NCBI GenBank assembly: GCA_964458995.1
Contig: CAYWKW010000001.1
Span: 3,462-67,461, forward strand
Direction: 5' to 3'
DNA: 64,000 bases
Source: an uncultured bacterium
Lineage (GTDB): Bacteria; Chlamydiota; Chlamydiia; Chlamydiales; SM23-39
Shown: piece by piece, positions 32,134-54,221 of the stretch
How the letters are laid out: the number at the start of each line of letters is the position of its first letter
Position numbering within the stretch: position 1 is the first letter of the stretch
The notes under the pieces: generated by a model
Seen by the model: only the letters and a program-made list of their open reading frames with translations
The model's database searches: none
What the model was told of the DNA's origin: nothing
Position numbers and translations under genes: made by a program

Positions 32134-34670
32134 TCACAAGTATGGGGTGGCACCAACGTGATATTCGTCGGTGTGAAGTAGCCTTCGTTGTTGGTAAATG
32201 CGGAGGATTCCAGTTGGAAGAGGGCCGGCGCCGTATTCGTGAAGATAAAAGGGTTGCTGCCGTTTGCGTTCTGTGTGGGATTCGCGATGTTGTCATTAAA
32301 CTGCAGGCATAAAGAGGTGTTCGCGCCTGAGGTTACAATCGAGGCAGCCCGAGTGCTATTGCCAAAAAACTGATTATTGTTGATTTTCATTCGGCTCGCT
32401 CCGCCCGACAAGGCAATATCAATCCCAGGAAGAAGTGTTTGGTGAAACTGATTATTTAAGATGCTGAGATTAAGGGGTCCTGAGGGATTCATCACAATCC
32501 CGTTACTGGAGGCGTTGCCGAAGAATGAATTATTTTCAACATTCCAAGTGCACAGTTGAGGTGAACTGGAGAAAAGATCCACACAAAACCCCTGAAGATT
32601 AGCAAGTATCGTGTTATTCAAAATAGAGCCGGTTGATTGAGCAGTATTCAAATTAGAGATTGTAATGCCAGTGTCAAAGCCACTGATCCCATCCCCCAGC
32701 ATGACTATCTTATTATTAGAAATTAGGAACTGAGCGGTAGAGCTGTTACGAAAAAACATGTTTATAGGATCTACGTATTCGAATACATTGTTGTCAATTA
32801 TAATGTTGCCGGATGCAGAGTTGGTCAGGTTGATAAAGATACCGTTTCCCTCGCCATATATATTGTTGTTTTTACAGAGGAATGTCACCGATGAGGTACT
32901 TGCGGCATTGATTGCTATCACGCTGCTGGATGACGAGATGTTATTGGAATCTAACGTTATCGACATTCGCGCTGCGTTTGTCAAAGCAACATTTATCTCA
33001 TTTCTTCCCGCTAGAGTGTTAGAATTCATAGCAAAGATATGTTCGGATGCGGGGGCAGAGCTATTTGATGCAGAAACATTGAAGAGAAAAGCAGAAGATA
33101 CGCTTTCGATATTGTTATTGGCAACCTGTGTAATAATTCCCGATGAATTTGTGTAGGTGAGCGTAACAGGGACTCCGGAACCACTCCCCGCCGGCGCAAT
33201 CGAATTATTTGTAATCGTGTAAGAGGCGTTGCTGATGCTCGCATTGGTTAGGGAAATGCCTCCACTTTGCTCGACTCCTATTTCGTTATGGTCGATTATC
33301 ATTTGCCCCGCGACATTGTTTAGGCCGATTCCCACTCTACTCACAGATGTGTTGCTGAGGATCGCATTGTTCGTAATGGTCAAATCGGTGATGGTGATCC
33401 CTGCATTCGATTGGCTGATGCCAGTCCCATTCAAATTGTTGATGGCAAGGCCGGAGATGGTATTTCCATTAGCCACAGCCACAACGGCGCCTCCGGTATT
33501 GCCGATGATGGGCAAAGTGGAGGTGAGGGAAGGGATGGCGATCACTCCCTGTGTAGTGGCGATGGAGTGCGTGACGGAAGAGCCCAAAAGCTGCTGGAAA
33601 TCCTTCAGCACAATTCCGCTATTCATCCCTGTGGCGGTGCCGTTTCCTGTAAATACGTAGATGATATTGTGAGGCGAGGAGTTCGCCTGCGCCGCGGCTA
33701 AAGTGGCGTAAGGGTCTTCAAAGGTTCCATCGGATCCGCTGAGGTTATCGACAAACACAAAGAAGAACGGGGCTCCCGTGGTTGGATCGATAGCCACTTG
33801 TGTCCTCCGCTTCGTGTCTACAGGGACGATTTCGCTGCGAACAACCCGCTGGTAGGCTCGCCTGACGAGCGTTTTGCATAGGCACTTGGGAACTTCTTCA
33901 CATTCCGTTCGACAGGTCCACCTTTTTCTGGGACCGAAAGGGATGATGATGCTCGCTTGTCCTTGGCCGATCCATTTGAAGAGATTGTCATAGGAGACGT
34001 TGCCTTCCAAGCGGAAGTATTGGTCGAAATCCAGCGCCGCGCGCAGCTTGCCTCCCCATGCCGTCTGATCATTTCCCCGCAGATAGTAGGGGCCTGCCGC
34101 CACCTCGACGGGGAGCCATTCGATTCTGTCCATATGATAGGCCACTTCGCTGTCGACGCTGGCCAGCGCATACTCATGTTTGCGGCTCAAGAACAGGTTG
34201 TGCCCCGCAAAGTGATCGAATTTAAGGGAAAAGCCGTGGCTTCTTTTCTTGCCCACGGGAAGATATCCGTTGATCCGAAAGTCCCACCTCTCGCCAAGCA
34301 TTTCGAAGCCGAGAGCCGCCTGGTTGTAGTGCAGGCGATGGGTGTTGCGATAGTCGTAATAGGCATTGGCGCCCCAGACCCGCCGCTCGCCTAAGTATCT
34401 TAAGCCCAGCCCTGCGTTGGCGGCGAGGTTTCCGTGGTCAAACACATGGCCGCGCAGGTCGAGGTAGGGAAGCCAGCTGCCGCGACAGAAGTCGCCCGGG
34501 GCAAAAAACCCCTCCAGCGTCGTGTATCCTTGTGTATACCCAATCCCGTTCGGCTCGATGTGGCGCATGGTGATGCGCATCGGGTAAGGTCCCACTTCAG
34601 AGGCTGAAAGGAATCCTGTTGCCGCTTGAAGCAGCAGCCAATAAGCAAAAAACGCACGTCTTGTTTTCAT
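32130..34670 (-). CDS. Inverse autotransporter-like (type Ve) surface protein with a beta-helix passenger, copy 2
   Basis: Paralog of 29587-32133 with a 4-nt overlap to it. The N-terminal ~500 aa and C-terminal ~90 aa are near-identical, and the central ~240 aa are strongly diverged. Both copies end in ...VPPHTCE. Confidence 0.7.
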   Translation of the reverse strand: MKTRRAFFAYWLLLQAATGFLSASEVGPYPMRITMRHIEPNGIGYTQGYTTLEGFFAPGDFCRGSWLPYLDLRGHVFDHGNLAANAGLGLRYLGERRVWGANAYYDYRNTHRLHYNQAALGFEMLGERWDFRINGYLPVGKKRSHGFSLKFDHFAGHNLFLSRKHEYALASVDSEVAYHMDRIEWLPVEVAAGPYYLRGNDQTAWGGKLRAALDFDQYFRLEGNVSYDNLFKWIGQGQASIIIPFGPRKRWTCRTECEEVPKCLCKTLVRRAYQRVVRSEIVPVDTKRRTQVAIDPTTGAPFFFVFVDNLSGSDGTFEDPYATLAAAQANSSPHNIIYVFTGNGTATGMNSGIVLKDFQQLLGSSVTHSIATTQGVIAIPSLTSTLPIIGNTGGAVVAVANGNTISGLAINNLNGTGISQSNAGITITDLTITNNAILSNTSVSRVGIGLNNVAGQMIIDHNEIGVEQSGGISLTNASISNASYTITNNSIAPAGSGSGVPVTLTYTNSSGIITQVANNNIESVSSAFLFNVSASNSSAPASEHIFAMNSNTLAGRNEINVALTNAARMSITLDSNNISSSSSVIAINAASTSSVTFLCKNNNIYGEGNGIFINLTNSASGNIIIDNNVFEYVDPINMFFRNSSTAQFLISNNKIVMLGDGISGFDTGITISNLNTAQSTGSILNNTILANLQGFCVDLFSSSPQLCTWNVENNSFFGNASSNGIVMNPSGPLNLSILNNQFHQTLLPGIDIALSGGASRMKINNNQFFGNSTRAASIVTSGANTSLCLQFNDNIANPTQNANGSNPFIFTNTAPALFQLESSAFTNNEGYFTPTNITLVPPHTCE

Positions 34671-38414: not shown

Positions 38415-40271
38415 ATGAAAACAATCTACTATCTCAAACGAGCGCTCTCTTTGCCGCCCCGTGTCGTTCTTCAAAAGATCGTTCACAAAATAAAGAGGGA
38501 GTGGGGTCAGAAAAAAAAGAAGTTTTTGGATCAAAAGTTCTCCACATTTGCATCGCAATGCCCCTTTTCTAAACTGAATCGTTTTATCAAGCGGGTGGAG
38601 ACTTCAGCTTTGCCAAAAGAGAAAATCTTGGACGCTTGCGCTCACTATTTGAAACATGAATTTGACTTGTTAGGGTCGGGACGGGTGCGGGTTGCCAATC
38701 GGACGGAGACGGGGGTAAATCCGCCCAATGAAAGCGAATCAGAGCGAATTAAGGGTTTGATCCAACAGCCTTACAACCCGATCGACTGGCAAATCGATTT
38801 TAAGTCGGGTTATCGCTGGAGCGAGAGCACCTGGAGTCAAGAAATCCAATATGGAAATGCCAGCGGCGTCGATGTCAAAGTGCCTTGGGAATTGGCCCGC
38901 ATGCAGCATCTCGTCCATTTGGCATGGGCCTACGGCTTAAGAAAAGAAGAGATTTATCTCCGAGAGTTTCAGAATCAAGTGATCGATTTCATCGCAAGCA
39001 ATCCCCCCCGTTATGGCGTGAATTGGTCTTGCACAATGGATGTGGGGATACGGATTGCCAATTGGCTCCTGAGCTACGATCTGCTCTGTTCTTTTGGAGC
39101 TCAATTTAGCCCAGAATTTGAGGAGACCTTTATCCGGAGTGTTTATGAACACGGAAAGCATATTTATACCCACCTGGAGTGGGATCCTTATCTGCGCTCC
39201 AATCACTACTTGGCCAATATTGCGGGACTCCTCTTCGTCGCGGCCTATCTCTCTGCGGAGGAGTGGTTGTCCTTTTCTCTTCGTGAACTCGAATCGGAAA
39301 CGCTCTCGCAATTTCATCCAGATGGGAGCAATTTTGAGGCCTCGACCAGCTACCATAGGCTTTCTGCCGAAATGGTTCTCTATGCAACGGCCCTCGCCCA
39401 AGACATCGGCCATCCATTTTCCTCTGAATATGGAGAACGGGTTAAAAAGATGGCCGAATTCATCAACGATATCACAAAGCCAGATGGCCAAATTGTTCAA
39501 TTTGGGGACAATGATAGCGGCCGATTTATCAAGCTGCTCCCCGAGGAAAATGGTTTAGATCATCGCTACTTGATTCGGGCTTTTGAAGGAAAAGGATTGT
39601 CTGGGGCTATCGAACAGCAGTTGGAAAAAACTCAAACGGTTCCGAAGTCACTGGCTGCCTATCCCGACTTCGGACTTTATGTGCAAAATAGGGGGCCCTG
39701 GTTTTTGGCTGTCCGTTGCGGCTCCATTGGCCAAAAAGGGAACGGGGGGCATGCGCATAACGATCAGCTCTCTTTTGAATTGTCTCTAAACGGGGTGCCG
39801 CTGATTGTGGACCCGGGGACCTTTGTCTATACCCCGTTTCCTGTGGAACGGAGGCGGTTTCGATCGACTGCTATGCACAACACTTTGGCGATTGAGGGAC
39901 GGGAGCAAAACTTGGATGGGGGGCTCTTCCGGATGACCGACAAGGCTAAGGCACGGGTGGTTCAATTCGAGGATGGGGTTTTTGTGGGGGAGCATGAGGG
40001 TTTTGGGTCGATTTATCGGAGAACATTGAAGATTCAAGGCGATTGCATTGAGGGGATCGATGAGTGTGAATTCGATGGGCCAAAAAGAATCTACTTTCAT
40101 TTAGCCCCCCGTTGGAAAGATGAAGTATTCAAATTTCGATTTTGGTCCGATCAAGGAACCTGGATCAGGGAAGAGGGCGAATATTCGAGTTGCTATGGGA
40201 AAAAAGTGACTGCGCCGCTGCTTATTTTACAGACGTCTTCCAAACGTACTTCATGGAAAATTTCTCAATAG
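38415..40271 (+). CDS. Heparinase II/III-like (alginate-lyase fold) protein
   Basis: WELARMQHL, NHYLANIAGLLFVAAYL, GGHAHNDQLSFELSLNGVPLIVDPGTFVYT and HNTLAIEG match the heparinase II/III-like family often found in O-antigen or capsule loci. Confidence 0.7.
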   Translation: MKTIYYLKRALSLPPRVVLQKIVHKIKREWGQKKKKFLDQKFSTFASQCPFSKLNRFIKRVETSALPKEKILDACAHYLKHEFDLLGSGRVRVANRTETGVNPPNESESERIKGLIQQPYNPIDWQIDFKSGYRWSESTWSQEIQYGNASGVDVKVPWELARMQHLVHLAWAYGLRKEEIYLREFQNQVIDFIASNPPRYGVNWSCTMDVGIRIANWLLSYDLLCSFGAQFSPEFEETFIRSVYEHGKHIYTHLEWDPYLRSNHYLANIAGLLFVAAYLSAEEWLSFSLRELESETLSQFHPDGSNFEASTSYHRLSAEMVLYATALAQDIGHPFSSEYGERVKKMAEFINDITKPDGQIVQFGDNDSGRFIKLLPEENGLDHRYLIRAFEGKGLSGAIEQQLEKTQTVPKSLAAYPDFGLYVQNRGPWFLAVRCGSIGQKGNGGHAHNDQLSFELSLNGVPLIVDPGTFVYTPFPVERRRFRSTAMHNTLAIEGREQNLDGGLFRMTDKAKARVVQFEDGVFVGEHEGFGSIYRRTLKIQGDCIEGIDECEFDGPKRIYFHLAPRWKDEVFKFRFWSDQGTWIREEGEYSSCYGKKVTAPLLILQTSSKRTSWKISQ

Positions 40272-41340
40272 CCAGGCCGGTCATGTAGAGGCCAAAAAGG
40301 GTGGCCAGGCTCACCATTCCCAAGACATAGGCTGTGAAGGGCACTGCTAAAATGCCCGGAAGGGAAAAGAATGCTCCCGAAACCAGGAAAGGGAGAGTCG
40401 TCCTAAAAGCTGGCTTTACATAGAAATAGAACAAGAGGCCAAAATTGAGGAACAGAAGGGCTTTGAAGCAGAGAAAGAGCGCTTTGGCTGCAATGGTTTT
40501 GAGGATGAATAGGGGGGCCGATTTGAAGAGAGAGAGGCACTGATCTCTGAGGATTCGCTCATATTCGGGAGAGCAGTTTTTCACTTCGGGATCGATCGAT
40601 CTTGCTTTTTCATCGGCAATCCTATCGCTATATTGAATGCCGTATGGGTTCTTTAAATAGCCTAATCCGATGTAGATATTATGCCATTTGGGGTGGCAAA
40701 GCTGCTGATTGGGCTCTTTCAGAAAGGCATCCCTCTCCGATTCCAGATGCCTAAAATGGAAATAGGGGATCGAAGTACAGATGAAGAGCGCAGATAGGCA
40801 ATAGAGTTTTTCTTTCAGGCTTTTATTGCACAGGATCCAAGTAATGATAAATAGCAAAACTCCCGTTCCCGAATGAGACCGGATCCAATTACAGTAGCCA
40901 ATGATCCACCCGCTGAAGATCAAAATGAGAAAAAGAGATCCGGTTTGTTTTTTTTGATCCCATAAAATGTAGAGAGGCACCAAAGAGGCTACGCAAAAGT
41001 AGGAGGCGATGTAGACGTCTGAATAGCGCCACCCAACCGCAGCAAGCAATAGGGTCGCACAAATTGAGATTGTTCTAGTAAGCCAGTGTTTGAAAAGTAG
41101 GAGAAAAGAGCCCCCCATAATCACTGCGCCGATCAACAGAAGAGAAGAGAGGAAAAGGGTGATCGACGAATCTAGGGAGAGGCCAAAGGTTTTTGAAATC
41201 CATGGGACAAAATAGAAGAGGCCCAAATCATCGGGAAATCCGGCGCGTCCATAGGTTTCTTGGTATTTCAAAACGAGCGGAACATGGGTAGAGTCTAGAC
41301 CATCCAAGGTTAGTTTCAATTGCGCATATCTACAATCCAT
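40222..41340 (-). CDS. Polytopic (~9 TM) membrane protein, paralog A of a 3-member family; putative GT-C/Wzy/WaaL-like glycan-processing enzyme
   Basis: Start MDCRY is at 41340 with a TGATG overlap onto the upstream methyltransferase stop. Motifs shared with paralogs B and C are F(A/P)DD(L/Q)G.(F/Y)Y(F/L)(V/I)P, GYCN(W/F/I)(I/L)RSH(S/A)GTG, HPKWH(N/S)IY(I/L)GL(G/S)Y and NCSPEYE(R/K)ILR(D/N). No known family is recognised. Confidence 0.6.
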   Translation of the reverse strand: MDCRYAQLKLTLDGLDSTHVPLVLKYQETYGRAGFPDDLGLFYFVPWISKTFGLSLDSSITLFLSSLLLIGAVIMGGSFLLLFKHWLTRTISICATLLLAAVGWRYSDVYIASYFCVASLVPLYILWDQKKQTGSLFLILIFSGWIIGYCNWIRSHSGTGVLLFIITWILCNKSLKEKLYCLSALFICTSIPYFHFRHLESERDAFLKEPNQQLCHPKWHNIYIGLGYLKNPYGIQYSDRIADEKARSIDPEVKNCSPEYERILRDQCLSLFKSAPLFILKTIAAKALFLCFKALLFLNFGLLFYFYVKPAFRTTLPFLVSGAFFSLPGILAVPFTAYVLGMVSLATLFGLYMTGLAIEKFSMKYVWKTSVK

Positions 41341-42044
41341 CACAGGCATGAAGAGTCGCTTTTTTGCAAAATGGAGGCGTAGAGTGCGCCAAGGGGGAGT
41401 TTTGTCAGAAAAGGCTCCGTTCTTCTGAGCCAGCTTAAGAATTTGGGGTAGAAGCAATAAAATTTTGTGGTGGTTTTACCATATTCTTTTTCTAAGCTGC
41501 GTGTATACCAAGGCGTCATCATTTTAGCATGTTTGTCGATGGGGTTCCGTTTGAACGTCAAGACGGTCAGCGGATTGAGAGGATTTAATTCAAAAATGAC
41601 CAGATGGCCATTGGGCTTTAAGAGACGGGTCAGCTCGTGAATGTAGCTTTTATGCATGGAGAAAGGAATATGGTGAAAAACCCCCGCAGAAAAAATGAGA
41701 TCCAATGACTCGCTCTTAAAATCGAGATGGGAGTGTTGATCGCAGCTCAGAGAAAATTGGATCCCATGGAATTGCTTCTGAGCTGTTTCTATGCTTTTAG
41801 GCGAAGGGTCTACTCCATGGACCAATGCCTTTGGAAACGTTTTTTTGACAAAATGGGTCATCACTCCATCGCCGCACCCAAAATCGAGAATAGAGATGGG
41901 CGAAGAGACTTGATTGGGAAACCATTCAGCCAGTTTTTTGGCTTTGTATTCGGCAAAAAAGGCGCTCGACTCTCCCGATAAAGCCAGAGCCTTGTCACAG
42001 TTGGAGCGATAGCCTTCGATGTAGTGATCAAACTCTTGTTTCAT
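41340..42044 (-). CDS. Class I SAM-dependent methyltransferase
   Basis: Motif I ILDFGCGDGVMT is present, with post-I and motif II/III spacing as expected. The size is 234 aa. Confidence 0.7.
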   Translation of the reverse strand: MKQEFDHYIEGYRSNCDKALALSGESSAFFAEYKAKKLAEWFPNQVSSPISILDFGCGDGVMTHFVKKTFPKALVHGVDPSPKSIETAQKQFHGIQFSLSCDQHSHLDFKSESLDLIFSAGVFHHIPFSMHKSYIHELTRLLKPNGHLVIFELNPLNPLTVLTFKRNPIDKHAKMMTPWYTRSLEKEYGKTTTKFYCFYPKFLSWLRRTEPFLTKLPLGALYASILQKSDSSCL

Positions 42045-43002
42045 GGAAGGTTTGCGGCTCAGGTTCGTTTATAAAATTCAATTCCTCGGCAACAATATAC
42101 AACGGTCTCCCTTTTTGTTGATCGTGGATTCGACCAATGTATTCACCTAAAAACCAAAAGAGAATGAATTGAATGCCCATGAAAATATAGGTAACGGTCG
42201 TGAGCCATTTAAAGAGGGGGTAATCGACTTTTCGGAAGAGAGCATCAAAGATGATATAGGAGAGCATCAACGTTCCAGTCAGAATGACAAATACGCCCAC
42301 ATAGGCTGCCAGGCGCAAAGGAAACATGGAAAAGCTGGTCATTCCGTCGAAGGCGAGCTTGAACATTTTTTTCCATGTATACCCTGTTTGACCTGCTTGT
42401 CGATTCGGCCTTGCAAAATCGATGAAATCGTGCGAAAAGCCCGTCCATGCAACCATTCCGCGGAAATAGCGCGACTTTTCCCGGCACCGGTTGAGCGTCG
42501 CGAGCACTTTTTTATCAATGAGCCTGAAATCACCCACGTTGCGAGGAATTTTCACGTCAGCAATCACATCCAAAAATTGGTAGTAGACTTTTGCTGTGAT
42601 GCGCTTTAAAAACGAGTCCTTTCTGTCAATTCTTCGCGCATAAACAATTTGCTTCCCCTCTTCCCATTTTTTTATCATGGGGAGTAACAATTTCGGAGGA
42701 TCTTGCAGGTCGGCATCCATTGTGATGATGGCATCGCCAGAGGCGTGATCGTATCCTGCTGTCAGGGCCATCTGATGGCCAAAATTGCGGCTGAAAGTGA
42801 TCGCTTTAACACGGGGATCGGCATGGGCGAGCTCTACCAGTTTGAGCCAGGAGCTATCCCTGCTCCCATCGTTTACAAAGATGAGTTCATAGTCATATTT
42901 AGCGCTTAAAAGATCTAAAACCGAAATGAGTTCCTTGTAGATAAGGGGAATGTTTTCTTCTTCATTAAATATTGGCAAAATAATCGATAATAGTCTTTTC
43001 AT
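42028..43002 (-). CDS. Polyprenyl-phosphate glycosyltransferase, GT2 family (ArnC/GtrB/DPM1-like)
   Basis: LSIILPIFNEEENI, FVNDGSRDSS, FSRNFGHQMALTAGYDHASGDAIITMDADLQDPP and GDFRLIDKKV, plus two C-terminal TM helices. This is the GtrB/ArnC architecture. Confidence 0.8.
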   Translation of the reverse strand: MKRLLSIILPIFNEEENIPLIYKELISVLDLLSAKYDYELIFVNDGSRDSSWLKLVELAHADPRVKAITFSRNFGHQMALTAGYDHASGDAIITMDADLQDPPKLLLPMIKKWEEGKQIVYARRIDRKDSFLKRITAKVYYQFLDVIADVKIPRNVGDFRLIDKKVLATLNRCREKSRYFRGMVAWTGFSHDFIDFARPNRQAGQTGYTWKKMFKLAFDGMTSFSMFPLRLAAYVGVFVILTGTLMLSYIIFDALFRKVDYPLFKWLTTVTYIFMGIQFILFWFLGEYIGRIHDQQKGRPLYIVAEELNFINEPEPQTFHETRV

Positions 43003-44135
43003 GAAGGATTCTCTTGAGTAATGAGGTTTTTTTGGGTGTATTTTTCGATTCCCACACAGATCATGTAAAGGCCAAAAAGAGTAGCGACGCTAGACATGCC
43101 TGCAAGATAGACATTAATGGGCATTACAAGAATTCCTGAAAGAGAATAGAAACCGGCGGAAATGAAAAAGGGGAGAACTTGATGTAGCTGCGGTTTGACA
43201 TAAAAATAGAAGGCGATTCCAAAGTTAAAGAAGATTAAGAACCTACAGATTATCTTCAAAAATTTATGTAGAAGCGTCTTTAGAATAAAAATCGGATCCT
43301 CTTTAGCTATCTGGAAAACAAGATTTCTCAATATTTTTTCATATTCGGGCGAACAATTTTTCACATTTGGATTGATCGACAAGGCTTTCTCCCACGCGCA
43401 CCGATCTGACCACTCAATTCCATGTCGATTGGGAAAATATCCCAACCCGAGGTAGATGGAATGCCATTTGGGATGGGTAACTCGAAGACTCTCATAAGCT
43501 GGACTGATTTTTGAAAGGTACCGATCTCGTTGCTGCTCCAGGTGATGAAAATGGAGATAGGGAAGCAGACAAGAGAGAACTAAGACTGAAAAATAAAACG
43601 CTTTTTTATTCCATTGGAGATTTGGATTTAAGATTAGCCAGAGAAACAAAAATAGAAGAACGCCCGTACCCGAATGAGAACGGATGAAATTGCAATAACC
43701 AATCAGAACCCCAGCGATAGCAAAATAAAGGGCTCCCCTAGGTTTCTTTAATGCGAAGAGAGGAATGAGGGTCGCACTGGCAAAGAAAAAGGTGATATAG
43801 ACATCGGAGTAGCGAAATGAGGCAATCGTTAACAACGAGATCGCTATGAAACTCACAACTCGAGAAGCCCAATGGGTGAATGCGGAATAAAAGCAAAAGA
43901 AGGCAACCATGGCCCCAACAGCTAAAAGCGAGCCAAAAAACAGATCAATGGCTTGATCGATGGAGATTCCAAGCCCTTTTGCGATAGAGGGAATAAGATA
44001 ATAGTTTCCTAAATCGTCCGCAAAACCTGCAGGCCAGTAGTTGCTTCCACTATAGCTAACAATCGGAACATCAGATAAATAAAGCCCTTTAAGAGTATTC
44101 TCGAGCTCTAGATGTCTGCACTCCATGATCTTCAT
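42999..44135 (-). CDS. Polytopic membrane protein, paralog B
   Basis: See paralog A. Motifs are ECRHLELENTLKG, FADDLGNYYLIP, GYCNFIRSHSGTGVLLF, HPKWHSIYLGLGY and NCSPEYEKILRN. Confidence 0.6.
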   Translation of the reverse strand: MKIMECRHLELENTLKGLYLSDVPIVSYSGSNYWPAGFADDLGNYYLIPSIAKGLGISIDQAIDLFFGSLLAVGAMVAFFCFYSAFTHWASRVVSFIAISLLTIASFRYSDVYITFFFASATLIPLFALKKPRGALYFAIAGVLIGYCNFIRSHSGTGVLLFLFLWLILNPNLQWNKKAFYFSVLVLSCLLPYLHFHHLEQQRDRYLSKISPAYESLRVTHPKWHSIYLGLGYFPNRHGIEWSDRCAWEKALSINPNVKNCSPEYEKILRNLVFQIAKEDPIFILKTLLHKFLKIICRFLIFFNFGIAFYFYVKPQLHQVLPFFISAGFYSLSGILVMPINVYLAGMSSVATLFGLYMICVGIEKYTQKNLITQENPS

Positions 44136-44138
44136 ATT

Positions 44139-45284
44139 CTATGTAGGGCTGGGTTGTTTAATGGAAGACGTTTGATATTTTTTTATTGCAAGACCGATCA
44201 TATAGACACCAAAAAGAGTGGATACAGTGTGAAGCCCTGTTAAGTAGGCATTTATGGGCAATGTTAAGATTCCTGGGAGGGAATAAAAGGACATAGCTAC
44301 GCAAAAGGGAATCAGAGTTCGGAATGGGGGTCTTACGTATAAGAGAAGGAGCAACCCAAAGTTTGCAAATTTGATAATTTTAAAGACGATCACGAATAAT
44401 TTAGTCAGAATGTTTTTAATTATAAAAAGTGGATCGTTCTTAAAAATGGAAAAACACTCATTTCGTAAGATCTTTTCATATTCTATCGAACAGTATTTGA
44501 CTTGGGGTTTTATGGAATCGACTTTTCTCGCTGAACACATATCAGCCCACTCGATGCCGTAATTATTTTTCAAATAAGAGAGCCCGATATAAATATTATG
44601 CCATTTGGGGTGAACAATGGGTTCGCTTACATAGTTAGGAACATGATTCACAAGAAATTGATCTCTTTGTTTTTCTAAAATACCGAAATGTAAATAAGGC
44701 ATCACAGCAAAAAGAATCAAAATTAAAATGGATTTATTCTTGTCCTGTTTTGTTAGTTCAGTGTTCAATAGAATCCAAGAAAGGATGAATAAAAGAGAAC
44801 CTGTTCCAGCATGAGAGCGCAAGATATTGCAATAGCCAATGACCCATCCGCTGAATGCGAGCGAACCGATTAAGAGCCAATTGAACTTGCGATGGGGTGA
44901 GAGAAATAGGGGAATAGTAGACGCGGCGGCGACAAATGAGAAGGTGTAAACATCAAAATAGCAATACCTTACAAGTAAAAGGACCGCCACGAGAGAAAAG
45001 AGCCAAGAAATCCAGTGTCGAGACAGATTGAACAAACAACCAAGAGAAATGAGAACTCCCATTAACATCAGAGAACTAAAGAAAAACTCAGTTGCTGAAT
45101 GAAGGGGGATTCCAAATGTTTTTGTAATCCAGGGGATGAAGTAGTACATTCCTTGGTCATCGGCGAAACCTGCAGGGAGATAAGTCCCCTCGAAAAGGGC
45201 GACTAGCGGAGTGTCGGACGCTTGATACCCATCCAGAGCGGCTTGAAGCTGCGTGCGTCTGCAATCCATCATGTCCATAATCAA
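44139..45284 (-). CDS. Polytopic membrane protein, paralog C
   Basis: See paralog A. Motifs are MDCRRTQLQAALDG, FADDQGMYYFIP, GYCNILRSHAGTGSLLF, HPKWHNIYIGLSY and YCSIEYEKILRN. Confidence 0.6.
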   Translation of the reverse strand: MIMDMMDCRRTQLQAALDGYQASDTPLVALFEGTYLPAGFADDQGMYYFIPWITKTFGIPLHSATEFFFSSLMLMGVLISLGCLFNLSRHWISWLFSLVAVLLLVRYCYFDVYTFSFVAAASTIPLFLSPHRKFNWLLIGSLAFSGWVIGYCNILRSHAGTGSLLFILSWILLNTELTKQDKNKSILILILFAVMPYLHFGILEKQRDQFLVNHVPNYVSEPIVHPKWHNIYIGLSYLKNNYGIEWADMCSARKVDSIKPQVKYCSIEYEKILRNECFSIFKNDPLFIIKNILTKLFVIVFKIIKFANFGLLLLLYVRPPFRTLIPFCVAMSFYSLPGILTLPINAYLTGLHTVSTLFGVYMIGLAIKKYQTSSIKQPSPT

Positions 45285-45412
45285 TCTACCCCTTTATCTC
45301 CATGCGCTGCATTTAAACCAGCAACGAGGGCAGCTTGATGGCCAAAATTGCGAGTGAATCGAATCAGACGGACGTTTTGATTTTCTCGTTGCAGCTTTTT
45401 GCACCTCCGGCC
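45281..45412 (-). pseudogene. Relic of a second ArnC/GtrB-like GT2 gene (~40 codons)
   Basis: The minus-strand translation GRRCKKLQRENQNVRLIRFTRNFGHQAALVAGLNAAHGDKGVD* parallels [38 protein letters not shown] of the intact GT2 at 42028-43002. It has no start codon and is bounded by stops. Confidence 0.75.
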
Positions 45413-45415
45413 TCA

Positions 45416-46339
45416 TTAGGTTCCTAGCACCATTTTTGAAAGGCCTTGCGTCAAATTGAATTGGGCCTTAAAACCGAGCTCTTGGGCCGCCCTTTTTGGG
45501 TCGCCTAAAGAAGTTCTAATATCGCCTAAACGCTCTGGTAAAAACCGCAATTGTAATGGATGCTGAATAAAATTTGCAACTTCTTTTGCTAGAGCAAGAA
45601 TAGAACTTTTTTTGCCTGTACAAATGTTATAAACTCTAGGCAAAACCCCATTTTTGCAAGAGTCAAAAGCTCGAATCAGGGCGGTTACAACATCTTCAAT
45701 ATAAACAAAATCGCGAACTTGTTCTCCATCTCCATAAATGGAAACGGGCAGCCGGTTTCTGATTTTTTCTGTGAAGATGGAAATCACTCCTGAATAGGGA
45801 GAAAGTGGATCTTGCCGAGGGCCAAAAACATTAAAAAATCGGAGTCCTACAGTCGGAATCCCATGAACCAGAGTCGCAATATTTGCGTGGAGTTCTGTGG
45901 CGAGTTTATCGACCCCGTAAGCCGACAGAGGAATCGAGCCCATGGTTTCTCTCAATGGGGGCTCTAAATTCCCATAAACAGCTGCGGATGAAGCATATAC
46001 AATTGGGATCTTTTTTTTAGGCAAGAGATGTTTGGCTGCATCAAAAACGGTAATGCTCCCCATGAAGTTGACCCTGCTGCATCCAAGCCAATCTTGGTGC
46101 GCTCGAAAAACCGAAGGAACAGCAGCCAAGTGGAAGCAGCCGTCAGCCTGATTCATCAATTCCAGAACAAGGGCGAAATCGGCGACATCGCCTTGAACAA
46201 ACTGGGCTTGGGGAGGAACATTTTCCAAGCGCCCCGTTGACAAATTATCTAAAATGAGAACCCGGTGCCCTTCAGCAAGGAGCCGATCGGAAAGATGGGA
46301 CCCGATAAATCCCGCTCCTCCCGTGATTAAGAACCGCAT
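45416..46339 (-). CDS. NAD-dependent nucleotide-sugar epimerase/dehydratase (extended SDR)
   Basis: MRFLITGGAGFIGSHL Rossmann motif, SSAAVYG, and the catalytic YGVDK (YxxxK). Confidence 0.8.
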   Translation of the reverse strand: MRFLITGGAGFIGSHLSDRLLAEGHRVLILDNLSTGRLENVPPQAQFVQGDVADFALVLELMNQADGCFHLAAVPSVFRAHQDWLGCSRVNFMGSITVFDAAKHLLPKKKIPIVYASSAAVYGNLEPPLRETMGSIPLSAYGVDKLATELHANIATLVHGIPTVGLRFFNVFGPRQDPLSPYSGVISIFTEKIRNRLPVSIYGDGEQVRDFVYIEDVVTALIRAFDSCKNGVLPRVYNICTGKKSSILALAKEVANFIQHPLQLRFLPERLGDIRTSLGDPKRAAQELGFKAQFNLTQGLSKMVLGT

Positions 46340-46345
46340 GCTTAC

Positions 46346-46759
46346 CTATCTAAAAAGCGAGATGACCCCAGTAAAGATAAGAAAAATACCCAAGATTTTA
46401 GAAAAAGTCAAAGGCTCATGAAAATAGAACAATGATAGGGTTACAAGAACAAGTAAATTCACTCCAATTGCTACGGGATAAGCTTTCGATATTTCCAGAT
46501 GAGCTAATGCTAAAATCCATGCCCCTGTAGCCACACTGATGGAAACTAACCCCACCCAAGTTTGCCAAGATGAAAAAAGGGTAATGAAGAAAGAAAAAAT
46601 AGATTGTGGCGAAGAAAAATTCCATGAGCCCAATTTTTGGACCTGATTTTTTATGATAAAAGCGCCCAAAGAATTAAAAACGACAAAAAACAAAACCATG
46701 CCCCATCCGAGGATCAAGGTTTTTGCAGCGGGTAAAGTTTTGACTAGGTTCTCTCGCAT
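46346..46759 (-). CDS. Small 4-TM DMT/SMR-like (EamA-type; ArnE/ArnF-like) membrane protein, candidate lipid-linked sugar flippase
   Basis: 137 aa with four hydrophobic helices. The C-terminal half (AYPVAIGVNLLVLVTLSLFYFHEPLTFSKILGIFLIFTGVISL) resembles EamA/SMR transporters. Confidence 0.5.
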   Translation of the reverse strand: MRENLVKTLPAAKTLILGWGMVLFFVVFNSLGAFIIKNQVQKLGSWNFSSPQSIFSFFITLFSSWQTWVGLVSISVATGAWILALAHLEISKAYPVAIGVNLLVLVTLSLFYFHEPLTFSKILGIFLIFTGVISLFR

Positions 46760-48375
46760 AGCTTCTCAATGATCTTTCGAGTATGTTCTTTCCATGTAAA
46801 CTTTGCAACAACCTCTTCTCGGGCAGCCTGCCCTAAATGTTGCCGCAAAACGGGATCTCCGATCAATGTCTTTAGTCCATTCATGAGACTTTCGGGATCT
46901 CCCGGTTTGACCATCCAGGCAGAGTGGTTGTGCTTCAAGATTTCTCCAATTTGATCGAGATCCGACGCGACGATCCCTTTGCCCATCGCCATATATTCAA
47001 ACAGTTTTGTCGGAGATCCGAAAAAGGGCGTTCCATCTGGATTCGGTACATGGGGAGAAACTAAAATGTCGCAAGCCGCTAAGTACGAGGGCCCCTTTTC
47101 CTGGTGAATGGTTCCAGTGAGGGTGCACGCCTCCATCGCGTTCCAACGATTCAGAGTTTCTTTTACAATAGGCATCGTGATCCCGTCTCCGATCATTAAA
47201 AGATGGACCCTTTTTCGCAGTTCCGGATGCATTTGCAATAATCTGCCAAAAGCTTCGGCCAATACTTCGGCCCCGTGCCATTGGCCAAAAGTTCCAATGA
47301 AGCCAAAGACTGTTTTGTTTTCTAATTCCAATAATTTGCGTATTTTAGAGCCTTCAATGGAAGGAGAATATTTTTCCGTATCGACGCCATTGGGGTTTAC
47401 TAATATCTTTTCACCTGCAATTCCTTTTGCCATCAGTTCGTTTTTAAGCGGCTGACTGACCACAACAATCACATCAGCGGAATGAATATTGAGTAGCTCT
47501 ATCTGTTCTGCAAGAGATTCATATCGCAATGCATTTCCCCAATTGCGGTTGACCCAGATCTCAGAGCCATTGAATTCCAAAACAAAGGGAACGCGATAAT
47601 GGCGGGCTAATTTGACCCCAGAAAAGTTATTTAAACTATACCGCTGGTAGATAAAGGAGGGCTTCCTGGAGCCAATCAGTTGCAGCGATGTATTAAAGAA
47701 AACGCGATTGTAAACAAAGAGGGGCATTTCGCTAAAATTCCAGAAAGAATCACCGGGAAAAATGATGTGGGATTCCAGCTCGGAATTCACCGTGGGAATT
47801 GAGTCTGTCGTTAGAAAAATGGGTCTTCCTGTAAAGGAGCTTAAATTGTTCAAAACCCCAGCAATGTGTCCAACTGATCCCCCCGATTGGAGGCCAAAAC
47901 AGAGATCTGTTCTCAAATAGAGAGGTTGAAGGGAGAGCTCTAATGGTTTTTCTCCTTTTACACCTCCCTGTAGCAGGCCCATTACTTCTCTTCCCATTTC
48001 TCTTAAAAACCGTTTTTTAGTGAGCAAATCTTTTAATAATTTCGTGAAAAGAATAGCTAATAGGGAGAATGTGATCTTTTTAGAATTATTATTTCTGTCG
48101 ATCAAATAACTATCTTTTCTGGAAAGGGATTTTATGATTAAAGCCAAAGCAAAAGGTTTTGCAATCAATCGAAGATCATAAGTGATCATTTTGGATTCTC
48201 TATAGCGGAGCAAATGGGAAAAGATCTTCCCAGATTTAATCCAATATTTCAATTCACTTATAGAGATGGAAGTGTGTTCTATGGGTGGAGGTTTCCCTAC
48301 AACGTAGGGCGAATAATAAGAAACAGTGATTTTGCTCATAGGTTCCAACACCTCCTCACAGTGGGTGTGTTGCAT
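46744..48375 (-). CDS. Glycosyltransferase, GT4 (group 1) with an extended N-terminal region
   Basis: The C-terminal GT-B motifs are GFIGTFGQWHGAEVL, LLMIGDG, FGSPTKLFEYMAMGKGIVASD (E-x7-E region) and GDPESL. Confidence 0.75.
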   Translation of the reverse strand: MQHTHCEEVLEPMSKITVSYYSPYVVGKPPPIEHTSISISELKYWIKSGKIFSHLLRYRESKMITYDLRLIAKPFALALIIKSLSRKDSYLIDRNNNSKKITFSLLAILFTKLLKDLLTKKRFLREMGREVMGLLQGGVKGEKPLELSLQPLYLRTDLCFGLQSGGSVGHIAGVLNNLSSFTGRPIFLTTDSIPTVNSELESHIIFPGDSFWNFSEMPLFVYNRVFFNTSLQLIGSRKPSFIYQRYSLNNFSGVKLARHYRVPFVLEFNGSEIWVNRNWGNALRYESLAEQIELLNIHSADVIVVVSQPLKNELMAKGIAGEKILVNPNGVDTEKYSPSIEGSKIRKLLELENKTVFGFIGTFGQWHGAEVLAEAFGRLLQMHPELRKRVHLLMIGDGITMPIVKETLNRWNAMEACTLTGTIHQEKGPSYLAACDILVSPHVPNPDGTPFFGSPTKLFEYMAMGKGIVASDLDQIGEILKHNHSAWMVKPGDPESLMNGLKTLIGDPVLRQHLGQAAREEVVAKFTWKEHTRKIIEKLCERT

Positions 48376-48877: not shown

Positions 48878-49987
48878 ATGAACAAAAAAATTGGATGGTT
48901 TTATCCCGTCTTTGGCGAAAGTGAAAAAAATGCCGTAGTGAAAGTTCTTGAAAGTCAATACATCAATGATGGCGATGTCACTCGTGGCTTTGAAGAAAAA
49001 ATAGCTACCTTTCTTGGATGCCGCCATTGCATCGCTGTGACGAGCGGAACTGCGGCTATTGCTTTGAGTTTGATGGCTTTGGGTATCGGCCCCGGAGATG
49101 AGGTCATCATTCCCGATTTGACCTTTGCGGCAACAGCCAATGCCGTCCATTTGGCAGGCGCCAAAGTAAAGCTGGTAGATATTGAACCGGTCCGTTTTAC
49201 TATCGATCCCAATCGAATTGAAGCGGCGATTACCTCAAGAACCAAGGCAATCATTCCTGTCGATGTCAACGGGCGCGGCGCTCGGTATGACCTCATTGAA
49301 AAAATAGCAAAAAAGAACAAATTGGCAGTTGTTTGCGATTCAGCTGAAGCTTTGGGATCGAAATACAAGGGACGCTACTTAGGAACCTATGGGGATATGG
49401 GATGTTTCTCTTTTTCCGCCAATAAGACGATATCTTCAGGCCAAGGCGGCATGATCGCCACCAATAACAGCGATCTCTACTATCGACTTCGCGAGCTCAA
49501 AGACCAGGGCCGTAGGTTCGGGGGAACGGGGGGAGATGACCTCCACCCCGTTGTGGGATATAATTTCAAATATACGAATTTGCAAGCAGCCGTGGCCTTG
49601 GCCCAATTTGAGAGAATGGGCGAGAGGGTTTGCCACTTCCAAAAACGGGATCAGTGGTATCAGGAATTTTTAAAACAGGGCGATGTATATACGCTGCCTC
49701 CGCTTCCCAATGATGGGGAAGTAAGGCAGTGGACCGATCTTCTCTGCGAAGAGAGACCTAGGATCGAACAAGCATTAAAGGGACAAAATATCGATTTCCG
49801 TCCCTTTTGGTTCCCCATCCATAGGCAAAAGCCCTATTTGTTGCCTGACGAGGGATTCGAAAATGCCATTCAAGTTTCCAAAAATGGACTATGGCTTCCC
49901 TCCTTTTTCGAAATCACCAAAGAAGATATTCAAATAGTCTCTCAAGTTATCCGTCAAGAATGTTCTCAAGCCGTTGGAGCTTCATGA
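48878..49987 (+). CDS. PLP-dependent nucleotide-sugar aminotransferase (DegT/DnrJ/EryC1/StrS; WbpE/ArnB-like)
   Basis: VTSGTAAIALSLMALGIGPGDEVIIPDLTFAATANAV, DSAEALGS and FSFSANKTISSGQGGMI (PLP Lys). Confidence 0.85.
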   Translation: MNKKIGWFYPVFGESEKNAVVKVLESQYINDGDVTRGFEEKIATFLGCRHCIAVTSGTAAIALSLMALGIGPGDEVIIPDLTFAATANAVHLAGAKVKLVDIEPVRFTIDPNRIEAAITSRTKAIIPVDVNGRGARYDLIEKIAKKNKLAVVCDSAEALGSKYKGRYLGTYGDMGCFSFSANKTISSGQGGMIATNNSDLYYRLRELKDQGRRFGGTGGDDLHPVVGYNFKYTNLQAAVALAQFERMGERVCHFQKRDQWYQEFLKQGDVYTLPPLPNDGEVRQWTDLLCEERPRIEQALKGQNIDFRPFWFPIHRQKPYLLPDEGFENAIQVSKNGLWLPSFFEITKEDIQIVSQVIRQECSQAVGAS

Positions 49988-51357
49988 AAAAATCGATCAT
50001 TGATATTCAAGTGCCTCTCGATTTCCCCGATCGGAATGTCTGTATTTTGGGCTTGGGCTTTGTAGGCGTTACTTTAGCCACTGCTATGGCTGAAGTGGGA
50101 TTTCAAGTGACAGGAGTGGAAATTCGAGAGGATGTTGTTGAAAAATTGCGCTCCGGAAGCGCCCATTTTTTTGAGCCCGGTCTTTCGACGCAATTGAAAA
50201 AAGTGATCGAAAATGGGCAATTAAAAGTCTTTAATCAAATTCCAGAAAATTGCAATGCCACCGTTTTTATTATCACGGTAGGAACACCCTTAGACGATCA
50301 TAAAAATATCAATCTGAATAGCATCCAAAATATCATTCAGGGAATTGCAAAAAGACTGAAGAATGGAGATCTAATCATTTTACGTTCGACTGTGAAATTG
50401 GGCACGACTCGATCGGTCGTCAAGGCGAAATTGATGGAAGCGGGTAAATCTTTTGAAATCGCTTTTTGCCCAGAGAGGACAGTGGAAGGGCAGGCGATGG
50501 CGGAATTGCGCTATTTGCCTCAAGTCATTGGTGCAGACAACTTGTCAACCAATATCCGAGCAGGACATATTTTTCAATTTTTGACTCCCACCGTCTTACG
50601 AGTCAGCGATGTTGAAACGGCTGAAATGATCAAATTGATTGATAACACCAAAAGAGACGTTGTTTTTGGTTTTTCCAATGAAGTAGCTCGCCTTTGCGAT
50701 GCAGCGGGGCTTAGCGCCGAAGAGGTGATTAGCGTGGGACGATTTGGCTATTCGAGGGCCGATTTGCCCTCACCCGGTCCCGTGGGCGGTCCCTGTTTAT
50801 CCAAAGATTCTCACATTTTGGCCCAAAGCATGAAAGACTTCGGAGTTGTCCCTGAAATTACATTGGCAGCTCGAAAGGTTAATGAGACCCAGCCCAGCGA
50901 AGTGGCTCACTTCCTACAAAAATTGATCCAACGAAATAAGGCTTTTCCCAAAAATTTAAAAATTTCCCTTATGGGCATCGCTTTTAAAGGCAAACCTGCA
51001 ACTGATGACATTCGAGGCACGACTGCAAAGCCCATTTTTGATGCCTTGAAAAACGCCTTTCCTCAAGCCGATTTTTACGGATTCGATCCAGTGGTCTCTT
51101 CTGAAGCCATTCGAGAGTTTGGGCTTAAACCCAAAACGGATGCGCGAGAAGCTGTTTTGAACTCCCATGTTGTATTGATTTTGAATAACCACTCCTATTT
51201 TTCGGATCTCCCCTTAGAGAAATGGGCCGCAGAAATGATAAGACCCGGAATCATCTACGATTTTTGGAATAATTTTAGCCGGAATAATCTTTGCTTGCCC
51301 CCTGATGTCAAATACATCGCATTAGGAAGCCACAAATTTGCCACGGAAGTAGTATGA
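49984..51357 (+). CDS. UDP-sugar 6-dehydrogenase (UDP-glucose/GDP-mannose dehydrogenase family; WbpA/TviB/Ugd-like)
   Basis: The ATG at 49984 forms an ATGA overlap with the upstream stop. Motifs are ILGLGFVGVTLATAMAEVGF, FCPERTVEG, GGPCLSKD (catalytic Cys) and GIAFKGKPATDDIRGT. Confidence 0.8.
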   Translation: MKKSIIDIQVPLDFPDRNVCILGLGFVGVTLATAMAEVGFQVTGVEIREDVVEKLRSGSAHFFEPGLSTQLKKVIENGQLKVFNQIPENCNATVFIITVGTPLDDHKNINLNSIQNIIQGIAKRLKNGDLIILRSTVKLGTTRSVVKAKLMEAGKSFEIAFCPERTVEGQAMAELRYLPQVIGADNLSTNIRAGHIFQFLTPTVLRVSDVETAEMIKLIDNTKRDVVFGFSNEVARLCDAAGLSAEEVISVGRFGYSRADLPSPGPVGGPCLSKDSHILAQSMKDFGVVPEITLAARKVNETQPSEVAHFLQKLIQRNKAFPKNLKISLMGIAFKGKPATDDIRGTTAKPIFDALKNAFPQADFYGFDPVVSSEAIREFGLKPKTDAREAVLNSHVVLILNNHSYFSDLPLEKWAAEMIRPGIIYDFWNNFSRNNLCLPPDVKYIALGSHKFATEVV

Positions 51358-53614: not shown

Positions 53615-53615
53615 G

Positions 53616-54221
53616 ATGAAAAGGGTTGCCGTTGTTGGCGAAGATTGGGACGTCATTGATCTCATCGAAGGCATTTCTGAATTAACCTTAGAGGGGGTCT
53701 TCGCCCCCTCTCTGGTTCGTCCTTGCGTTCCCTACTTAGGCAAAGATGAAGATTTCAAACCCGAAGGGCATTTCCAAGTCGTTTTGGCTGTCGACCTGCC
53801 CGCGATTCGTGCGAAATTAGCTGATCATTATGGCCTTGAAAATCTCTTTACTCTCCAATCGCCTCACGCCTATGTTTCTTCTCGTGCTGAAATTGGAAAT
53901 GGATCCGTTATTCAAAGGGGGGTGACGATCATGCCCCATGTAAAACTCGGACTTGCTTGTAAAGTCAATATCAATGCCACTCTCCATCACGACGTGAAGG
54001 TGGGCGATTTTTGTACCATCGCTCCGGGTGCACTGATCCTAGGAAATGTGATCATCGAAGAAGGCGTATATGTGGGTGCGGGGGCCATTATCAAGCAGCG
54101 ATGCCGCATTGGGGCGGGAACTGTGATTGGAGCTGGGGCCGTTGTTATAAAAGATGTCCCTCCTTACAAAACAGTAGTGGGAGTTCCTGCGAAAGAAATG
54201 GTCCGTGAGTCTAGTTCCTAG
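53616..54221 (+). CDS. Sugar N-/O-acetyltransferase, left-handed beta-helix (NeuD/PglD/WbpD-like)
   Basis: The N-terminal Rossmann-like MKRVAVVGEDWDVIDLI is followed by hexapeptide repeats (IGNGSVIQRGVTIMPHVKLG..., VGAGAIIKQRCRIGAGTVIGAGAVV). Confidence 0.7.
   Translation: MKRVAVVGEDWDVIDLIEGISELTLEGVFAPSLVRPCVPYLGKDEDFKPEGHFQVVLAVDLPAIRAKLADHYGLENLFTLQSPHAYVSSRAEIGNGSVIQRGVTIMPHVKLGLACKVNINATLHHDVKVGDFCTIAPGALILGNVIIEEGVYVGAGAIIKQRCRIGAGTVIGAGAVVIKDVPPYKTVVGVPAKEMVRESSS

Follow-up and report, generated by a model that had tools for sequence, protein, structure and literature searches.

The window analysed here, a 64,000-nucleotide stretch of a contig from an uncultured chlamydia-like bacterium, carries on its minus strand an eight-gene operon (positions 40222-48375) that probably encodes a three-component extracytoplasmic glycosylation module of the Gtr/Arn type, located within a surface-polysaccharide cluster dependent on an ATP-binding cassette (ABC) transporter. 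The genes are ordered GT4 glycosyltransferase, ArnF-like SMR protein, short-chain dehydrogenase/reductase (SDR), paralog C, paralog B, GT2 glycosyltransferase, methyltransferase and paralog A (Table 1), and the three paralogous polytopic proteins would be the periplasmic transferases. They belong to an undescribed transferase family, large and structurally atypical, that is absent from Pfam, NCBIfam and the PDB, while the overall logic of such systems is already well known; the reading given here is computational throughout. The eight genes are regarded as one operon because neighbouring genes overlap or are no more than 6 nt apart, save for a 131-nt gap ahead of paralog C. The initial annotation of this DNA had likewise placed the SDR, the SMR/EamA-like protein, the GT2, the methyltransferase and the three paralogs on one strand, and all of them are encoded on the minus strand where it had located them. 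The maximal open reading frame (ORF; 40222-41457) of paralog A, which begins with a TTG at 41457, would lengthen the protein by 36 residues and run 118 nt into the methyltransferase gene. Repeats that would point to phase variation, whether tandem or simple, were not found.

Paralogs A, B and C are 45-49% identical to one another over their full length, far beyond chance, and each of the four motifs that had been quoted for them is present in all three copies. In a database search, paralog B recovered P0013 (375 amino acids (aa), E 7e-104) and P0018 (379 aa, E 6e-99), which are encoded on one 72,561-bp contig and have the lengths of paralogs A and C (P numbers denote homologous family proteins and L numbers loci in other genomes). 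Among 113 diverse family members R7, R152, W224, D244, K291, G306 and P339 are invariant, and D40, D41, D111 and H225 are kept in at least 90%; the three window paralogs retain all of these residues.

Paralog B was modelled with AlphaFold2 from 29 homologs, with a predicted local distance difference test score (pLDDT) of 93.8 and a predicted TM-score (pTM) of 0.90. A Foldseek search of the PDB with this model placed ArnT first (E 2.8e-3, probability 1.0), ahead of AftA, five STT3 entries and AftB; beneath this GT-C group were unrelated proteins, G-protein-coupled receptors, with probabilities below 0.2, and the ligase WaaL (7TPG; probability 0.13, TM-score 0.28). As an independent check, a 36%-identical relative (P0025) was modelled (pLDDT 88.7), and it also matched ArnT best (E 8.8e-4), then AglB, STT3, ALG3, AftD and AftA. 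GT-C enzymes alone thus lead both searches, with probabilities of 0.9-1.0, and neither a transporter nor an unrelated fold stands on top, in line with the earlier proposal that the paralogs are GT-C-like transferases. The models point to a GT-C-like fold, the likeness being reproducible, modest and confined to the level of the fold. In a library of viral structures the sole confident match to the paralog B model was BFVD entry A0A514K2W1 (probability 1.0, TM-score 0.53/0.61), an uncharacterised 326-aa protein of a Nitrosopumilus spindle-shaped virus, an archaeal virus; this match is uninformative.

Both models contain nine membrane-spanning helices, the number that the initial annotation had estimated, and a hydropathy scan gave 9-10 hydrophobic segments. 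The loop it had noticed between TM6 and TM7 is present, its size being 82 residues (199-280 of paralog B) and not about 90. A feature absent from that annotation is the 58-residue N-terminal segment of paralog B, with no transmembrane helix ahead of it. In the model, this soluble segment comprises a helix (residues 5-21), a beta-hairpin and a second helix (39-55) beginning at the DD motif, and it is followed by six membrane helices, the 82-residue helical loop and three further membrane helices. The rule that the catalytic loop of GT-C enzymes follows the first transmembrane helix (TM1) therefore does not apply to the family: the window paralogs and 148 of 174 representatives have neither TM1 nor a signal peptide and start with the soluble segment, and since TM1 is missing they depart from the canonical GT-C architecture. 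In the other 26 representatives (about 15%), whose N-terminus is extended by 25 residues or more, the position of TM1 is filled by a signal peptide or signal anchor, of the classic kind in about 22 of them; the signal peptide of P0072, MMRRIMFVFSMLWLLVVVVPAHA/QT, is an example.

Because the window proteins have no transmembrane helix or signal peptide ahead of the DD motif, the orientation of this acidic motif needed testing. The positive-inside rule was applied to 175 aligned family sequences, in which lysines and arginines number 0.9-3.2 per sequence on loops of the side facing away from the motifs and on the C-tail, against 0.02-0.14 on the short motif-side loops L2-3 and L8-9; the third such loop, L4-5, has only the invariant R152, and the N-tail is net acidic. 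In P0068 (1029 aa) and P0072 (989 aa) the family domain is fused C-terminally to a GT4 of the GT-B class, 36% identical to the operon GT4 over 377 aa (E 1e-80), and such a fusion requires a C-in orientation, as the GT4 is necessarily cytoplasmic. These three indicators, the signal peptides of longer homologs, the positive-inside rule and the GT4 fusions, are independent of one another and together lead to a predicted N-out, C-in topology with nine transmembrane helices and every conserved motif on the periplasmic side. The acidic motif is accordingly predicted to be periplasmic, which the proposal of the initial annotation required, and not cytoplasmic. The residues predicted to face the periplasm include D40, D41, D111 (in an SDVY motif), R152-S-H-x-G-T-G, H-P-K-W224-H225, D244 and the CSxEYE segment; conserved acidic (D40, D41, D111, D244) and basic (R7, R152, H225, K291) residues would thus lie on this side, where conservation among the three paralogs also peaks.

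The family has further variants of length. A subgroup of about 590-600 aa (P0094, P0117, P0137, P0147, P0180 and the gene at 8532-10358 of L078) is extended at the C-terminus by about 220 residues. In P0094 the extension reads as a single additional hydrophobic helix and then a beta-rich domain that lacks a Pfam match, an arrangement that would put the domain in the periplasm; by analogy with GT136 or the Emb proteins, this domain is possibly a carbohydrate-binding module. The actinobacterial members (9356-11692 of L063 in Cryobacterium flavum; L060-L068 in Microbacterium) measure 690-780 aa as maximal ORFs, and that of Cryobacterium contains a partial GT2 domain at residues 535-615, which may be a further cytoplasmic glycosyltransferase fusion or an ORF-calling artefact of high-GC DNA.

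A word-indexed search recovered only 29 relatives of the paralogs, all from chlamydial metagenome bins. A profile was also searched exhaustively against 1.84 billion cluster representatives, with 1,621 matches at E ≤ 1e-3, 675 of them at E ≤ 1e-30; clustered at 50% identity, the family numbers no fewer than 1,600 clusters. When GTDB was scanned with one genome for each species, 70 loci were identified. Members are found in more than 12 phyla, and the taxa include Chlamydiota, Verrucomicrobia, Babeliales (Dependentiae), Berkelbacteria of the candidate phyla radiation (CPR), Elusimicrobia, Nitrospirota, Nitrospinaceae, Acidobacteriota, Gemmatimonadales, Chlorobi-group bacteria, Planctomycetes, Flavobacteriales, Alteromonas, Campylobacter, Solirubrobacterales, Microbacterium and Cryobacterium. 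Some carriers can be cultured, among them Microbacterium spp., Cryobacterium flavum CGMCC 1.11215 and Alteromonas naphthalenivorans. All members are labelled "hypothetical protein" in their sources and have no precomputed Pfam domain, and a word-indexed search with a 113-sequence profile returned the same label only. Literature searches on the heparinase/AsnB/GT4 cluster and on systems combining a GT2, a methyltransferase and a GT-C enzyme brought up no description of the family. A tblastn search of plasmids and phages revealed no homologs, and there is thus no evidence for a mobile seroconversion cassette.

The genomic context of the family was compared in 71 non-redundant loci from more than 12 phyla, in which ORFs were labelled using the window proteins. 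GtrB-like GT2 genes, counted at a length of at least 280 aa, number 39 in 32 loci; 27 of them lie within 1 kb of a family gene and 33 within 2 kb, just six fall in the four-fold larger range of 2-10 kb, and 32 are on the same strand as the family gene. The association with polyprenyl-phosphate glycosyltransferase genes, which the initial annotation had presumed, is therefore found in other phyla. Linkage to the methyltransferase, a partnership not noted in that annotation, is as tight, with 27 of 33 homologs within 1 kb of a family gene. Collinear triads of GT2, methyltransferase and family gene occur in L008, L009, L012, L020, L021, L025, L027, L030, L047-L050 and L073, and the taxa with such triads include Chlamydiota, Verrucomicrobia, Babeliales, Berkelbacteria, Nitrospirota, Chlorobi-group bacteria and Campylobacter, and paralog A occupies this conserved position after the methyltransferase. 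Family and GT2 genes are present in four and three copies in L038, in three and two in L025 and L027, and in two each in L020 and L030, and the copy numbers per locus are correlated (Spearman rho 0.30, p 0.011). Two metagenomic contigs (L078 and L079) encode an NTP-transferase, a dehydratase, DegT, an SDR and a GT2, followed by one or two family genes, a complete cassette with the logic of the Arn pathway and a different sugar. A conserved set of backbone genes also accompanies the family, namely those for uridine diphosphate (UDP)-N-acetylglucosamine (GlcNAc) 2-epimerase, UDP-N-acetylmannosamine (ManNAc) dehydrogenase, an ADH_zinc and GFO_IDH_MocA fusion (ADH-GFO), an AsnB-type amidotransferase, a GT4 and a cytoplasmic heparinase II/III-like protein, all of which are present in the window.

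The operon GT2 is homologous over its full length to Synechocystis GtrB (5EKP; E 7e-77, residues 5-306) and to ArnC structures (E 2e-42), which identifies it as a polyprenyl-phosphate glycosyltransferase, as had been recognised earlier. Its best NCBIfam model is PgfS (245 bits; equivalog cutoff 500), ahead of ArnC (163 bits), both matches being full length and below cutoff. PgfS belongs to the Pgf pathway of Streptococcus mutans (PgfS, PgfE, PgfM1 and PgfM2), in which a GT2 and a C4-epimerase serve more than one GT-C enzyme through a single lipid-linked donor, so that the sharing of one GT2 and epimerase by several GT-C enzymes is established (PMC12041528). The match raises the alternative that the acceptor is protein, Ser/Thr-rich extracytoplasmic segments being O-glycosylated by the same carrier chemistry, as by Pgf, GtrB/PgtC2 or PMT. 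The Pgf operon, with its GT2, epimerase and two GT-C enzymes, transfers N-acetylgalactosamine (GalNAc) onto proteins (PMC12041528). A conceivable target is encoded 6 kb from the module (29587-34670, minus strand), where two tandem paralogs of about 847 aa each combine an inverse-autotransporter IAT_beta domain (E ~1e-8) with a long repetitive passenger region rich in Ser, Thr and Asn. A protein acceptor is nevertheless improbable, as the genes of the family lie within polysaccharide clusters in different phyla and are fused in some cases to the GT4 of these clusters, the PgfS match is far under the equivalog cutoff, and PgfM1 and PgfM2 are YfhO-type enzymes, whereas no YfhO match was found for the window family. 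The Pgf operon, as described, also lists no methyltransferase (PMC12041528). The acceptor is most likely a surface polysaccharide outside the cytoplasm.

The nearest solved relatives of the SDR are 6WJB and 6WJ9 (E 1e-61), UDP-glucose 4-epimerases (GalE), WbgU and WbpP. The entries 6WJ9-6WJB are taken here to be the UDP-GlcNAc C4-epimerase PelX, and WbgU and WbpP are UDP-GlcNAc 4-epimerases. The relatives L002 and L003 encode a fusion protein of 668 aa that joins an SDR domain to the GT2. From its homology and this fusion, the SDR probably makes the nucleotide-sugar substrate of the GT2, and the donor sugar is probably a C4-epimerised hexose or N-acetylhexosamine (HexNAc), maybe methylated.

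The initial annotation had instead favoured a donor resembling 4-amino-4-deoxy-L-arabinose (Ara4N), drawing on the neighbouring Ugd-like, SDR and DegT genes. This was rejected: among the cluster proteins (38-64 kb) no ArnA-type formyltransferase/decarboxylase or ArnD was found, the likeness to the C-terminal domain of ArnA being of the generic SDR level only; the SDR of the module is of the C4-epimerase type; and the "Ugd-like" gene, of the UDP-ManNAc-dehydrogenase-like subfamily, shares a divergent backbone-cluster operon with DegT. An Arn-like modification, in which an amino sugar such as Ara4N or galactosamine would be attached to lipid A or core, is consequently very improbable. It would account for ArnT as the top structural match, for the ArnC-like GT2 and the ArnF-like small protein, and for the DegT aminotransferase and nucleotide-sugar dehydrogenase nearby. 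However, unlike the pathway of E. coli, Salmonella and Cupriavidus (ArnC, ArnE-ArnF, ArnT), the cluster lacks equivalents of ArnA, ArnB and the deformylase ArnD, and its paralogs, of about 375 aa with nine transmembrane helices and no C-terminal periplasmic domain, have no detectable sequence similarity to ArnT, which in E. coli has 550 aa; hhalign of the family against this enzyme gave a probability of 0.2. The Gram-positive Microbacterium and Cryobacterium and the CPR Berkelbacteria have no lipid A, and since the family occurs in all three, lipid A is not its general acceptor.

The 137-aa protein, with four hydrophobic segments, matches the NCBIfam models ArnF (E 1.5e-8; 35 bits against a cutoff of 99) and ArnE (E 2.8e-4), has weak matches to Pfam EamA and Multi_Drug_Res, and is marginal in BLASTP against E. 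coli ArnF (E 0.015). It is a candidate flippase for the lipid-linked sugar. Its homologs stand beside GT2 or family genes in L009, L015, L020 and L041 only, and small membrane ORFs of GtrA-like or SMR-like type near GT2 or family genes provide candidates in only about eight loci, so the module does not include a dedicated flippase as a conserved component. The methyltransferase matches only generic class I methyltransferases in the PDB. In two relatives (L002 and L003) four methyltransferase genes flank the family gene, and split transketolase-like genes, encoding N-terminal and pyrimidine-binding halves, lie between the ADH-GFO gene and the SDR-GT2 fusion (2460-4135 of L002, 3739-5453 of L003), a gene set suggestive of an uncommon sugar, either branched or carrying many methyl groups. 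The operon GT4 resembles the PEP-CTERM/XrtA stp3 glycosyltransferase, below cutoff, and GT4 genes co-occur with the family in many loci. GT4 is a cytoplasmic partner of the family, and the methyltransferase neighbour and the GT4 fusions are two conserved associations of the family that have not been reported; the fusions functionally tie a membrane domain that faces the periplasm to a GT-B enzyme of the cytoplasm.

In the proposed mechanism, the SDR would C4-epimerise a UDP-hexose or UDP-HexNAc, and the GT2, by its enzyme class, would move the epimerised sugar onto undecaprenyl phosphate at the cytoplasmic face. The S-adenosylmethionine (SAM)-dependent methyltransferase probably methylates the sugar before export, as suggested solely by the synteny of GT2, methyltransferase and family genes. 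The SMR/ArnF-like protein may then flip the lipid-linked sugar, and the three paralogs may each attach it to the exported glycan that the surrounding cluster produces, differing in the position or linkage they use. That three paralogs would give three specificities from one donor, as the initial annotation had proposed, is conjecture.

Several points weigh against assigning the operon to such a module. The fold likeness is modest, with TM-scores of 0.33-0.47, root-mean-square deviations of 9-19 Å and a best E of about 1e-3. A sequence profile search of the PDB with the family gave 0 matches at E up to 10, the hhalign comparison with ArnT was negative as stated above, and 29 close and 9 distant members had no consistent match in Pfam or NCBIfam, apart from isolated Pfam noise at E > 0.01. 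The three window paralogs have no Pfam match, and paralog B has a single weak NCBIfam match, to the LA_3751/LA_3752 putative glycosyltransferase family (E 1.6e-5; 24 bits against a cutoff of 200). The 58-residue N-tail of the window proteins would need export without a signal peptide. An SMR-like flippase is found in just four other loci, and in roughly half of the loci a GtrB-like GT2 is absent from the surrounding 10 kb, the family gene lying amid ADH-GFO, AsnB and heparinase-like genes and, in some cases, with Wzx and a BY-kinase. Contexts with and without a linked GT2 are interspersed in a neighbour-joining tree of the family. Finally, it is by inference that a single GT2 is taken to serve three transferases, that the sugar is taken to be methylated, and that donor and acceptor are assigned. 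The interspersed tree also does not bear out the idea that GT2-linked and GT2-less members form separate clades, possibly with different functions; the three window paralogs cluster in it with other chlamydial copies.

The marginal Foldseek E values, the TM-scores below 0.5 and the missing sequence homology to any characterised enzyme would suit a protein that is not a glycosyltransferase, the GT-C likeness being that of a generic helical bundle. Such a protein might be a transporter, a flippase or another membrane enzyme, for example a non-sugar transferase tied to the methyltransferase, which is the closest-linked neighbour in place of the GT2. This alternative is improbable, given that GT-C enzymes alone head both fold searches, that the synteny with GtrB-like GT2 genes is tight, and that the invariant acidic and basic residues are grouped on the predicted periplasmic side, as in GT-C active sites, and not along a membrane-spanning path.

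The GT2-less loci raise the question of whether the family acts as a Wzy-like polymerase or WaaL-like ligase on undecaprenyl-diphosphate-linked oligosaccharides of the conserved N-acetylmannosaminuronic acid (ManNAcA)-type cluster and not on undecaprenyl-phosphate monosaccharides, the GT2 serving another step. The gene orders ADH-GFO/family/AsnB and AsnB/family/heparinase-like in these loci, the presence of Wzx and a BY-kinase in some of them, and the fusions to the cluster GT4, which link the family to backbone synthesis, are compatible with this role; L003 shows no other polytopic polymerase candidate within 10 kb, and one family member weakly matches an oligosaccharide repeat-unit polymerase model (E 1.2e-3). 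ABC-exporter genes are, however, present in the Microbacterium loci (Wzm/Wzt), L044 and L052, and the window cluster likewise carries a Wzm/Wzt exporter. The ABC-transporter pathway does not need a Wzy polymerase, so the exporters of the window and of Microbacterium argue against a polymerase role. Two to four paralogs per locus, tracking GT2 copy number, would be unexpected for a polymerase, and the GT2 genes are concentrated within 1 kb of the family genes. WaaL, moreover, ranked far below ArnT in the Foldseek search, and no Wzy_C/O-antigen-ligase match was found in Pfam. A polymerase or ligase is thus unlikely, though such a role may apply to relatives in Wzx-containing loci. In L026 (Nitrospinaceae) a 509-aa polytopic protein that ends in a soluble domain and lacks a Pfam match (13146-14675, minus strand) is encoded in a cluster with Wzx, a BY-kinase-like ATPase and one family gene; it could be the polymerase there instead, and is a candidate for either that role or a second orphan transferase.

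A bolder interpretation, which is rather doubtful, would make the paralogs a new glycosyltransferase family: a GT-C-like lineage that lost TM1 and whose N-terminal catalytic segment is exported without a signal peptide. The methyltransferase partner would then stand for methylated undecaprenyl-phosphate sugars decorating exported glycans in more than 12 phyla, and the recurrent GT4 fusion for a physical connection between intracellular backbone synthesis and extracellular decoration. To our knowledge, no methylated lipid-linked donor of this kind has been described.

Among known systems, the O-antigen-glucosylating GtrA/GtrB/GtrC of Shigella and Salmonella phages, with its relatives, also combines a GtrB-type GT2 making the undecaprenyl-phosphate sugar, which the window GT2 matches over its full length (5EKP), with a small membrane protein as presumed flippase and a polytopic GT-C-like enzyme whose active site is periplasmic (predicted for the window) in the same operon. 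In contrast, the window flippase candidate is SMR/ArnF-like and not GtrA-like, and the transferases have no TM1 and no sequence relation to the GtrC families. The operon also has three transferase paralogs, a methyltransferase and an epimerase, and the module is chromosomal, in the ABC-transporter cluster of a chlamydia-like bacterium. The system of Citrobacter youngae offers another parallel. GT136, a sequence-orphan GT-C enzyme defined in 2024, was recognised by predicted fold and gene context and modifies an ABC-transporter-dependent O-antigen after polymerisation; post-export decoration of such polymers by three-component systems is known, and an SDR epimerase can alter the donor (PMC11127046). 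Unlike the window module, this pentofuranose system obtains its donor from phosphoribosyl pyrophosphate (PRPP) by a phosphoribosyl synthase and not by a GtrB-type GT2, its flippase is of the MATE type, and GT136 possesses both TM1 and a carbohydrate-binding module at its C-terminus.

Three-component periplasmic glycosylation ranks among the main sources of diversity in surface antigens. The cataloguing of its transferases, which are sequence orphans, has only recently begun, and polysaccharide loci would be better annotated once the family had a name. If the module functions as proposed, environmental chlamydiae may make decorated surface polysaccharides, and glycoengineers would gain a compact GT-C-like scaffold of about 375 aa. 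With its conserved methyltransferase partner and without TM1, the family departs in two concrete ways from the textbook architecture.

Table 1. Genes of the glycosylation operon and of the surrounding polysaccharide cluster in the window
Feature	Position	Strand	Assignment and remarks
Heparinase II/III-like protein	38415-40271	+	Pfam Hepar_II_III_N, _C; no signal peptide; convergent with the operon
Paralog A	40222-41349	-	375 aa from ATG at 41349; start from an independent gene call on an identical metagenomic contig; unnamed GT-C-like family
Methyltransferase	41340-42044	-	234 aa; class I, SAM-dependent, cytoplasmic; Pfam Methyltransf_25, _11, _12
GT2	42028-43002	-	GtrB/ArnC type; C-terminal membrane anchor; full-length 5EKP and ArnC matches
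Paralog B	42999-44135	-	378 aa; copy used for modelling; unnamed GT-C-like family
Paralog C	44139-45284	-	381 aa (379 aa by independent gene call); unnamed GT-C-like family
SDR	45416-46339	-	Nucleotide-sugar C4-epimerase type; Pfam Epimerase, E 5e-54
SMR/EamA-like protein	46346-46759	-	137 aa; four hydrophobic segments; weak NCBIfam ArnF match
GT4	46744-48375	-	GT-B glycosyltransferase; first operon gene; Pfam Glyco_trans_1_4, Glycos_transf_1, Glyco_transf_4
Divergent nucleotide-sugar modification operon	48878-54221	+	DegT aminotransferase, NDP-sugar dehydrogenase, SDR, C-methyltransferase, NeuD/PglB-type acetyltransferase
Wzt/RfbE-like ATPase	54255-55220	-	Polysaccharide ABC exporter
ABC-2 permease	55010-55903	-	Polysaccharide ABC exporter
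Backbone genes	55916-63848	-	Recur with the family in other phyla; the four genes below, a 271-aa unknown protein and a GT17-like protein
AsnB-type amidotransferase	55916-57796	-	
ADH_zinc and GFO_IDH_MocA fusion	59511-61544	-	
UDP-ManNAc dehydrogenase	61541-62746	-	
UDP-GlcNAc 2-epimerase	62730-63848	-	

The heparinase-like gene next to the operon adjoins family genes in many loci, for example L008, L012, L015, L056, L064-L075 and L079, and is a constant member of such clusters (copies at 18447-20534 of L003 and 7586-9664 of L079, among others). One copy has a weak match to a dermatan-sulfate-epimerase-like N-domain, and the protein might be a uronic-acid C5-epimerase instead of a lyase.

Elsewhere in the window, a 723-aa GreA with a 570-residue N-terminal extension is encoded at 19222-21393, and a YjbH-family exopolysaccharide protein at 21563-23725. 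Two overlapping 253-aa ORFs starting with GTG (15466-16892), which lack a Pfam match, may mark a tandem duplication.

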